Positions 9,884-10,819 of a DNA stretch of 40,000 nucleotides are shown here, in pieces; the first letter of the stretch is position 1; every line of letters starts with the position of its first letter. The translations under genes and the position numbers were made by a program. The stretch comes from Arsenophonus sp. aPb (GTDB lineage: Bacteria; Pseudomonadota; Gammaproteobacteria; Enterobacterales; Enterobacteriaceae). The DNA lies in the NCBI RefSeq assembly GCF_029873475.1, contig NZ_CP123499.1:999616-1039615 (forward strand). Reading direction: 5' to 3'. The notes beneath the pieces were generated by a model. The model saw only the letters and a list, made by a program, of their open reading frames with translations. It ran no database searches and was not told the origin of the DNA.

Positions 9884-10819
9884 CTATTTTTTATTTATCA
9901 TTCGTATATATGCGCTTATAAATTCTTTCGCGACCGGCGCGACAAGGGCATTACCGTAGGCGCGCAGGCGTCCCACTCTGTTGGTAACCCCATTAGCCAG
10001 CGGGAATGTGCCGGATTCAATCGGGCGCAACTTTCCATCTCTACACAAGATCCAGTCTGTATTTTCCCAGAATCCAGATACATAATTGCTTGCTCTTCCA
10101 GATTCCCCGGGCTTAATGATGACCTTCCCGTTATCAACCTTTTTCTCTGACGTTCTGCTAGCGCATCCGGTGATCGTGTTGAATTCACCGTTGTCGGCGT
10201 TAACCATCCTGTTATCATCATTCCTTGTTCTGTTGCATAATCCAGTCTGCTGAACATCCTGTTTTTTCCATCCTTCCGAATTATTGTTGGTCCACTTCCT
10301 TTGCAGTCGTTCGCCGTTGGTGTTGGCCACCCAGTAGAGTCTTTGCCTGATGTGCGGCGCACCGAAGCCCGCAGCGCATAAATCAAGCGCTGTTGTGGTG
10401 TAGTTCTCTGCTTCCAGGTCAGTTTGTACAATGTCGAGCCAAGTGAGTCCGTCTTTGCTTGCAACCTGTTCACCAAAGATAACGTCAGGGTTGCACTGGC
10501 AAATGAGGTGGAAAAACGCGGGCCATAAGTGCCGCTCATCAGCAAACCCATTTCTTTTGCCTGCCGCGCTGAAAGGCTGGCAGGGGCAACTTCCTGTCCA
10601 TACTGGTTTATCATCTGGCCATCCTGCCTTGCGTAATGCGTATGACCAGACGCCGATTCCTGCGAAGAAATGACATTGTGTATATGCTTTAAGGTCATCG
10701 GGTTTAACATCCTCTATTGAGCGTTCATCGACATCGCCATCGGCAATATGTCCTGCTGAGATTAAATTACGCAACCATTGAGCTGCGTAAGGGTCAATTT
10801 CATTGTAATAAGCAGCCAA
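9884..10819 (-). CDS. phage DNA (cytosine-5) methyltransferase (orphan; TTG start)
   Basis: Motifs FAGIG (I), SCPCQPFSAAGK (IV), FGEQV (VI), HIRQRLYWVA (VIII), RLRAYGNALVAPVA (X). GGAG RBS lies before the TTG. Confidence 0.9.
   Translation of the reverse strand: MAAYYNEIDPYAAQWLRNLISAGHIADGDVDERSIEDVKPDDLKAYTQCHFFAGIGVWSYALRKAGWPDDKPVWTGSCPCQPFSAAGKRNGFADERHLWPAFFHLICQCNPDVIFGEQVASKDGLTWLDIVQTDLEAENYTTTALDLCAAGFGAPHIRQRLYWVANTNGERLQRKWTNNNSEGWKKQDVQQTGLCNRTRNDDNRMVNADNGEFNTITGCASRTSEKKVDNGKVIIKPGESGRASNYVSGFWENTDWILCRDGKLRPIESGTFPLANGVTNRVGRLRAYGNALVAPVAKEFISAYIRMINKK
9916..10551 (-). CDS. candidate overprinted ORF in the +1 frame of the C5-MTase gene (211 aa from the ATG at 10551; frame is stop-free up to 10710)
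   Basis: 264 stop-free codons lie fully inside 9884..10819. The product has [37 protein letters not shown] and a terminal [17 protein letters not shown] motif. Expression is unproven. Confidence 0.4.
   Translation of the reverse strand: [211 protein letters not shown]

Follow-up and report, generated by a model that had tools for sequence, protein, structure and literature searches.

Can a methyltransferase gene carry a second long gene inside it, on the same strand and in another frame, and, if so, do both products belong to one enzyme? The question arises from a locus in a 40,000 nt stretch of the genome of Arsenophonus sp. aPb (NZ_CP123499.1, positions 999,616 to 1,039,615; hereafter the window). 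An open reading frame (ORF) resembling the genes for C5 cytosine DNA methyltransferases, here called frame A, occupies coordinates 9884–10819 of the minus strand and would specify 311 amino acids (aa) from a TTG start codon. A second ORF, frame B (9916–10710), is read at +1 relative to frame A, with an offset of 109 nt, and would specify 264 aa from the ATG at 10710, or 260 aa from the ATG at 10698. Coordinates of both ORFs include the stop codon, and all the features of frames A and B described below are on the minus strand. The ORF list of the window confirmed what an initial annotation of this DNA had claimed, namely that frame B is free of stops from 10710 to 9916 and lies entirely inside frame A. 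We present evidence that frame B is a conserved and selected coding sequence, and propose that the locus probably specifies a C5 cytosine DNA methyltransferase built, in the manner of M.EcoHK31I, from two polypeptides, with the product of frame A as the alpha-like large polypeptide and that of frame B as the beta-like small polypeptide.

Conservation of the nested frame and selection on both frames

The initial annotation had suggested examining whether both frames stay open among homologues, and this was what we found: in about 170 homologous loci in all, from proteobacterial, cyanobacterial and Lacticaseibacillus phages, frame B was open at +1 throughout. Among 83 loci chosen by their similarity to A (A identity of 48–62%), the +1 frame was open for 224–351 codons in nearly all, and its translations were 37–52% identical to B, whereas the +2 frame of the same loci was open for just 33–96 codons. 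When 80 loci were chosen by similarity to B, the match was at +1 inside an A-like gene in every one of them, and none contained B without A. The nested +1 frame also occurs in distant phages, including N15 (gp58), Rhodobacter RcPacific, Cylindrospermopsis Cr-LKS3 and Lacticaseibacillus R9.1; it is still present in the last of these at an A identity of just 29.5%. A tblastn search with B retrieved 237 phage records, and a profile built from 88 B-like proteins matched 17,954 cluster representatives (clustered at 50% identity) at E ≤ 1e-3, with 7,658 at E ≤ 1e-30. Additionally, 66 prophage homologues were recovered from Escherichia coli genomes in a distant search mode, when megablast gave none. 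Frame B defines a very large and poorly annotated family.

Such a long open frame had been considered very improbable by chance, and synonymous shuffling agreed with this. Shuffling the A codons of the window gene produced a mean of 7.2 stops in the +1 frame, and none of 200 shuffles was stop-free. For 79 non-identical homologues, the shuffles led to an expectation of 4.07 +1 stops per gene, and the mean probability of zero stops was about 0.014 per gene; nevertheless, 64 of the 79 genes had none. In the +2 frame, we observed 14.7 stops per gene in the same 79 homologues, for 12.3 expected in the same shuffles. The G+C content of the gene, 0.48, is also higher than that of its flanks, 0.39, in line with the initial annotation. 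Across the window gene and the 79 homologous loci, G+C content varied less in the genes (standard deviation of 0.028) than in the flanks (0.057), and the slope of gene on flank was 0.42; likewise, blastn showed that the Arsenophonus gene is 70–77% identical to genes from Pseudomonas, Burkholderia, Vibrio and Rhodobacter phages. Both this buffered G+C content and the retained nucleotide identity are consistent with a dual-coding constraint on synonymous sites.

Selection on each frame was estimated as omega by counting in the manner of OLGenie; the values are pairwise, from 766 pairs of sequences, with a bootstrap over sequences. The two ends of the gene served as internal controls, with low values for A and high values for B both in A codons 1–36 (omega_A of 0.04, omega_B of 9.6) and in A codons 284–311 (0.05 and 0.81, respectively). 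Values in A codons 37–70 were 0.06 for A and 2.9 for B. From there on both frames showed low values: 0.06 for A and 0.18 (0.15–0.22) for B in A codons 71–165, and 0.09 for A and 0.15 (0.11–0.21) for B in A codons 251–283. In the centre, A codons 166–250, omega_A rose to 0.37 (0.30–0.48) and omega_B was 0.17 (0.13–0.22). The values along the gene therefore indicate that A and B are both under purifying selection over most of the overlap. The dual constraint extends across A codons 71–283, a positive result for the analysis of synonymous sites that the initial annotation had advised. B is the more constrained frame in the centre, and its first 35 residues or so are free to vary.

Nucleotide diversity by A codon position followed a matching course along the gene. 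A single-frame pattern, with the third codon position far above the first two, was seen in A codons 1–70, and the third-position value was about halved in A codons 71–160. All three positions varied in the centre, with the first position of A, which is the third of B, varying most; they were almost frozen in A codons 251–285, and the single-frame pattern was back after the end of B. In pairwise comparisons of the central segment, which are independent of the multiple alignment, the BLOSUM62 score per residue was 1.02 for B, 0.62 for A and 0.51 for the +2 control, and the similarity of B exceeded that of A in 364 of 400 pairs. Judging from these comparisons, it is close to certain that frame B is a functional conserved coding sequence. 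The claim of the initial annotation that B is a real second frame tied to the methyltransferase function, and not shadow noise, is supported by the selection analysis, by the 170 or so loci and by the conserved ATG and Shine-Dalgarno sequence described below.

Contents of the two frames

NCBI lists a protein with 100% identity to the product of frame A under the name "DNA cytosine methyltransferase [Arsenophonus sp. aPb]". In a Pfam scan, PF00145 matched A residues 73–201 at 8.8e-19, and phrog_363 matched A over its full length at 1.8e-89. The catalytic motifs I (FxGxG), IV (PCQ), VI and VIII are present in that order. Motif I corresponds to FFAGIG (aa 51–56; 10652–10669) and motif IV, which includes the catalytic Cys, to PCQPFS (aa 79–84; 10568–10585), aligned with PCQAFS from M.HhaI; motif VIII corresponds to RQRLYWV (aa 158–164; 10328–10348), aligned with QKRERIYMI from M.HhaI. 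Motif X, YGNALVAPVA (aa 288–297; 9929–9958), was recognized by its pattern and is outside the hidden Markov model alignments; of the two frames, A alone is constrained at this place. In 60 homologues, Y287 and N289 of this motif were invariant and G288 was conserved in at least 90%, using the alignment numbering, which is the window residue minus one.

The A profile matched M.HhaI with 97% probability, the alignment covering motifs I–VIII only (residues 7–177; phmmer and hhalign). Eighty genomic relatives, covering residues 1–325, validated the M.HhaI query sequence. An AlphaFold2 (AF2) model of A, built with a 60-sequence alignment, was confident for residues 1–165 and contained a C-terminal helix (293–309) at motif X with a predicted local distance difference test (pLDDT) score of 77–85; residues 170–253 were unstructured, with pLDDT values of 25–36. 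The Foldseek matches of this model spanned some 170 columns and included M.HhaI, M.HaeIII, DNMT2 and DNMT1, with 1fjx at 1e-7. The central variable region of the gene (10070–10324; A aa 166–250) specifies, in A, a linker that is polar and under weak constraint and, in B, the GWxTP repeats. We did not find in A either a motif IX or a folded target-recognition domain (TRD) between motifs VIII and X, and the motif IX pattern was present in frame A of none of the 79 genes. As judged from its motifs and family matches, frame A specifies a methyltransferase of the C5 cytosine class; motifs I–VIII are present, as is motif X, and motif IX is absent. The initial annotation had called it complete: the motifs I, IV, VI, VIII and X that it listed are indeed there, but completeness does not hold, as motif IX is not recognizable.

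The TTG start codon of A is preceded, 5 nt upstream, by the Shine-Dalgarno sequence AAGGAG (10825–10830), read from the sequence. Where the start codon of A homologues was readable, there were 35 ATG, two GTG and one TTG; the window gene has its TTG behind the strong AAGGAG. With alpha starting weakly and beta starting at an ATG, the proportion of the two chains might be adjusted in this way. At the other end of the gene, a G+C-rich hairpin of eight pairs (9866–9886) starts in the stop codon of A (9884–9886) and runs downstream; the T-run needed for an intrinsic terminator at this hairpin exists on the plus strand only, opposite to the strand of A.

Frame B was matched over aa 5–252 by phrog_1008, a family named "DNA methyltransferase", at 4.7e-30, and by phrog_31772 at 1.8e-18. 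We obtained no Pfam or NCBIfam match for B, and no meaningful family for 88 B homologues either. The layout of B comprises a conserved N-terminal part, a series of GW(P)TP(T)xxD repeats and a conserved C-terminal block. The N-terminal part contains a conserved domain of approximately aa 36–125 (10336–10605; SLSARQAKE..., GLLTSGTYG...) that is overprinted on A motifs IV–VIII and has invariant alignment columns. The best parts of an AF2 model of B were a helix (residues 69–89) and a hairpin (residues 94–116), with pLDDT values of 86–92. The repeats include GWPTPTAND (10306–10332) and GWLTPTT (10189–10209), and the number of GWxTP-type copies varies among B homologues from 2 to more than 8. Both of these peptides, as well as the C-terminal motif at 9973–10020 and the YGNALVAPVA of A, are located where the initial annotation had placed them.

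This C-terminal motif is an element of 16 residues (aa 231–246; 9973–10020) that resembles motif IX of C5 methyltransferases. The regular expression L.P.{5}[LVI][MQ]G[FYL]P.{2}[WYF], which describes motif IX of M.HhaI (LHPRECARVMGYPDSY, residues 274–289), had a single match in the 80,000 residues of the six-frame translation of the window, and this match is the B element. The expression was found in frame B of 73 of the 79 homologues, and never in frame A or in the +2 frame. In a comparison with hhalign of the B family and the 80-member M.HhaI family, the best local match was motif IX (274–289), over 16 columns and short of significance. The element overlaps a conserved block of A, DWILCRDGKLRPIESGTFPLANG (9989–10057), both frames being constrained in this segment, and motif X of A starts 5 codons after the end of the element. 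Colinear C5 methyltransferases have the same order, motif IX and then motif X, with a spacer somewhat longer than the 5 codons seen here.

A chimeric query made of the C-termini of B and A, used to search for single-chain relatives, retrieved only three short singleton ORFs and no full-length colinear enzyme, in a search whose candidates were seemingly limited to short proteins. In these three metagenomic singletons (P0241, P0242 and P0345; 82–108 aa) the B frame runs straight into the A frame (...GRLRAYGNA...), which brings motif IX and motif X together in a single chain; variants resembling M.AquI, pseudogenes and errors of sequencing are all conceivable origins. A different derivative is the "cytosine methylase" of the Dunaliella viridis virus SI2 (134 aa; L088, 1281–1685), a miniature that retains A residues 3–28 and 247–309, plus B residues 214–252 at +1. 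An internal deletion seems to have taken out its catalytic core, leaving the C-terminal block that is coded in both frames.

The start region of B (10696–10714) comprises the sequence GAGG (10711–10714), an ATG at 10708–10710 and a second ATG at 10696–10698, 12 nt after the GAGG. Among the 79 homologues, the stop that opens the B frame lies before nucleotide 112 of the A gene in 78, and 60 have an ATG at the column of window position 10710. This ATG exists because one of two synonymous codons is used in A: the overlapping Asp is encoded by GAT in 73 of the 79 genes, compared to 63% and around 45% for the two neighbouring Asp codons. An early ATG in the B frame with a Shine-Dalgarno core 6–12 nt upstream was found in 73 of the 79 genes, in three layouts: an ATG at 109 with (A)GGAG at 8 nt, an ATG at 121 with GAGG at 12 nt, and an ATG at 91 with GGAG at 6 nt. 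The positions of the ATG and of the Shine-Dalgarno sequence shift together; the window gene has the second layout, plus the ATG at 10710. It is likely that B has a conserved start of its own, probably at 10710 or 10698. The ATG at 10551, called plausible by the initial annotation, is rejected as the conserved start, since its column holds an ATG in only 35 of the 79 homologues. No sigma-70-like promoter was found within the gene on its coding strand, and we therefore assume that B is translated from the mRNA of A.

A probable two-chain enzyme and its alternatives

M.EcoHK31I consists of an alpha and a beta chain, whose association is needed for activity, and its beta chain is encoded within the alpha gene in another frame (PMC2836561, PMC3404938, citing Lee, Kam & Shaw 1995). 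Its alpha chain contains motifs I–VIII, motif X plus a predicted TRD, while beta contains motif IX, and progressive deletion of the N-terminus of beta weakens the association (PMC2836561, PMC3404938). This precedent is missing from the initial annotation. By analogy with it, A would be translated from the TTG at 10819 and would provide the catalytic large domain, with motifs I–VIII. Past motif VIII, it would continue as a long linker that needs only to stay open, and its C-terminus would consist of a conserved block plus the helix of motif X. Translation of B would begin at the internal ATG, at 10710 or 10698, presumably on the mRNA of A, and be read at +1. Its product would comprise, in this order, a dispensable N-terminal tail of about 35 aa, the domain overprinted on A motifs IV–VIII, the variable GWxTP repeats and the C-terminal block with the motif-IX-like element. 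We propose that B binds A and provides the small-domain parts that are missing from it, namely motif IX and, probably, target recognition, and that DNA would be methylated only by the pair, as for M.EcoHK31I. The biological role of the enzyme could be to shield phage or prophage DNA from host restriction.

Several of our results weigh against this two-chain reading. The AF2 model of B alone was poor, with a mean pLDDT of 59, and Foldseek found zero fold matches for it; additionally, a comparison of the B profile with PDB sequences returned nothing at E ≤ 10. The C-terminal element of B is named motif IX by its pattern and position: the match of the B and M.HhaI families in hhalign is right in place but not significant (P of 0.09–0.32), and the B profile, when compared with just M.HhaI, gave a non-significant match at a place other than motif IX. 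As to the start of B in the window gene, the first ATG lacks a spaced Shine-Dalgarno sequence and the second is separated from its GAGG by 12 nt, which is long. Finally, and unlike M.EcoHK31I, with its predicted TRD in alpha, it is in B that the stretch from motif VIII to motif X is constrained here; in A this stretch shows weak constraint and predicted disorder, and in B it contains constrained GWxTP repeats in variable number.

Conservation and selection show that B has a function, and not which kind, and no significant profile or fold match connects B to characterized domains. B might then be real and translated but independent of the methyltransferase, acting as a regulator, a DNA-binding accessory protein or an anti-defence protein. 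We consider this unlikely, because B never occurs without A in the 80 loci chosen by B similarity, and because its motif-IX-like pattern is at the colinear position of a methyltransferase, ahead of motif X of A. Furthermore, A itself has no motif IX and an unconstrained centre, and the precedent of M.EcoHK31I fits this arrangement (PMC2836561). The initial annotation had put forward, among its explanations, that the B frame is reached from A by +1 frameshifting, and a fusion of the N-terminus of A to the C-terminus of B, through ribosomal frameshifting or transcriptional slippage, would indeed look like a colinear methyltransferase, with motifs I–VIII from A and the repeats and motif IX from B; also, the three short singleton ORFs join B to the A frame near the boundary of motifs IX and X. 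We nonetheless give very little credit to such a fusion. The slippery-site search that the initial annotation recommended revealed no conserved homopolymer, with runs of at least 6 in 14 of the 79 genes and at no common position, nor was any X_XXY_YYZ heptamer conserved, since no column was shared by more than 5 of the 79 genes. Likewise, B is under selection already at A codons 71–165, corresponding to motifs IV–VIII and upstream of any useful junction; it opens with a conserved ATG and Shine-Dalgarno sequence, and the product of the fusion would be without motif X.

It is hardly conceivable that B is a non-functional shadow held open by the composition of A, or the fossil of an old frame switch. 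The composition of A does by itself reduce the expected number of +1 stops (4.1 per gene in the shuffles, vs. 12.3 for +2), but it does not account for the 64 stop-free genes, given the low mean probability per gene. A shadow or a fossil is equally at odds with an omega_B of 0.15–0.18, compared to at least 0.8 in the control regions, with a centre that is better conserved in B than in A and with the conservation of the synonymous site that creates the ATG of B. We reject the fossil, which was another explanation in the initial annotation, because of these omega_B values. The first of its explanations, a true overprinted gene, is the one supported by the conservation of the frame, the purifying selection and the conserved ATG with its Shine-Dalgarno sequence.

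Returning to the two-chain enzyme, the selection analysis and the structure prediction suggest that target recognition may be located in the small chain, although variable regions of methyltransferases diverge fast anyway. Tentatively, this idea can be extended further, and we advance as a possibility, to which we lean less than to its opposite, that the nested beta bears the whole target-recognition module in the form of its array of 2 to more than 8 GWxTP repeats. The variable region of alpha would then be a disordered passenger linker, and the N-terminal domain of B would have been born by overprinting on motifs IV–VIII. If beta did bear the recognition module, the specificity would be encoded by the alternative frame, where gain or loss of repeats could alter it while alpha just stays open, and the textbook assignment for enzymes of the M.EcoHK31I type would have to be revised. 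In age and in spread, the locus would also rank near the top of the long nested gene pairs that prokaryotic viruses carry on the same strand.

Annotation, genomic setting and comparison with known methyltransferases

Frame B is un-annotated in the record of Arsenophonus sp. aPb, and the RefSeq/PGAP annotations of E. coli prophages (66 genomes) name A only. In phages K1G, K1H, K1ind3 and fTaEco01 the nested ORF is annotated as a "putative Mte8-like protein", without a function, and the records of K1G and fTaEco01 annotate both frames. Conversely, B is annotated in place of A in the records of Pseudomonas phage PMG1 and Cylindrospermopsis phage Cr-LKS3; in PMG1, the first 34 residues of A are in a different frame than the remainder. 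We found one paper mentioning the nested "Mte8-like" ORF, which is merely listed there (PMC5582158).

In the window, the gene has as neighbours a gene for an annealing protein of the Sak4 type and one for an HNH fusion protein, and we therefore assign the locus to a prophage replication module; no endonuclease was found near the gene in this module. The 324 aa product of coordinates 8540–9514 (minus strand) matches phrog_874, phrog_18361 and phrog_28019, of unknown function, at its ends (aa 3–35 and 237–322), and several HNH endonuclease families in its centre (aa 74–229); this pattern resembles that of a phage protein into which an HNH domain has been inserted or within which it has been fused. 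Methyltransferases of another type also accompany the family in places: the C-terminus of one B-like protein (P0059, 413 aa) continues into a segment of PF01555 (N6/N4 methyltransferase), and in phage eiAU a gene for an N6-adenine methyltransferase (L001, 933–1478) is directly 3′ of the C5 methyltransferase gene. C5 and N6 methyltransferases are linked in some genomes and are possibly fused.

Should A be inactive without B, methylome prediction and the cloning of "orphan Dcm-like" phage enzymes would fail unless the nested gene is intact; codon optimization of A would destroy B. The locus contains around 800 nt of nested coding sequence on the same strand, with both frames under selection, in phages of Proteobacteria, Cyanobacteria and Firmicutes, and some 18,000 sequence clusters are at hand. 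Together with the biochemical precedent, it makes an unusually good natural system to examine the origin and persistence of long overlaps. Natural split C5 methyltransferases serve as scaffolds for targeted methylation (PMC2836561), and for enzyme design this family supplies thousands of variants. The architecture itself has been known since 1995; the locus is nonetheless worth recording, given how large and how old its family is, how strong its dual-coding signal is and how little of it is annotated.

The closest annotated counterparts of B are the "Mte8-like" ORFs of K1G, K1H, K1ind3 and fTaEco01 (phrog_1008), which belong to the same ORF family and occupy the same nested +1 place, in a gene annotated as "C-specific methylase". 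[quoted passage not shown] The genes for M.AquI lie one behind the other and are not nested. This is a two-chain C5 methyltransferase in which both chains must assemble, with the split in the variable region, motifs I–VIII in alpha and motifs IX and X in beta (PMC3404938). The enzyme proposed here would be like M.AquI in that the C5 methyltransferase activity is parted between two chains, and unlike it in that motif X is in A, past the constrained part of B, and in that the small gene is fully nested.

The likeness to M.EcoHK31I, which we draw from published descriptions of its architecture, is more extensive. In both cases the small gene is fully nested in another frame and the large chain holds motifs I–VIII and X, with motif IX or, here, a putative element of that type recognized by its pattern, on the small chain. 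Also, the N-terminus of B is free to vary, and that of the M.EcoHK31I beta chain can be lost in part and modulates how the chains associate. Sizes are comparable as well, with 311 aa for A and about 180 aa for B minus the repeats, as against around 309 and 176 aa for the alpha and beta chains. In contrast, M.EcoHK31I is part of a restriction-modification system with YGGCCR as its recognition sequence, whereas the gene from Arsenophonus sp. aPb is in a prophage replication module. By analogy, then, the locus is probably an arrangement of the M.EcoHK31I type, known since 1995 but rare, and overlooked by standard annotation.

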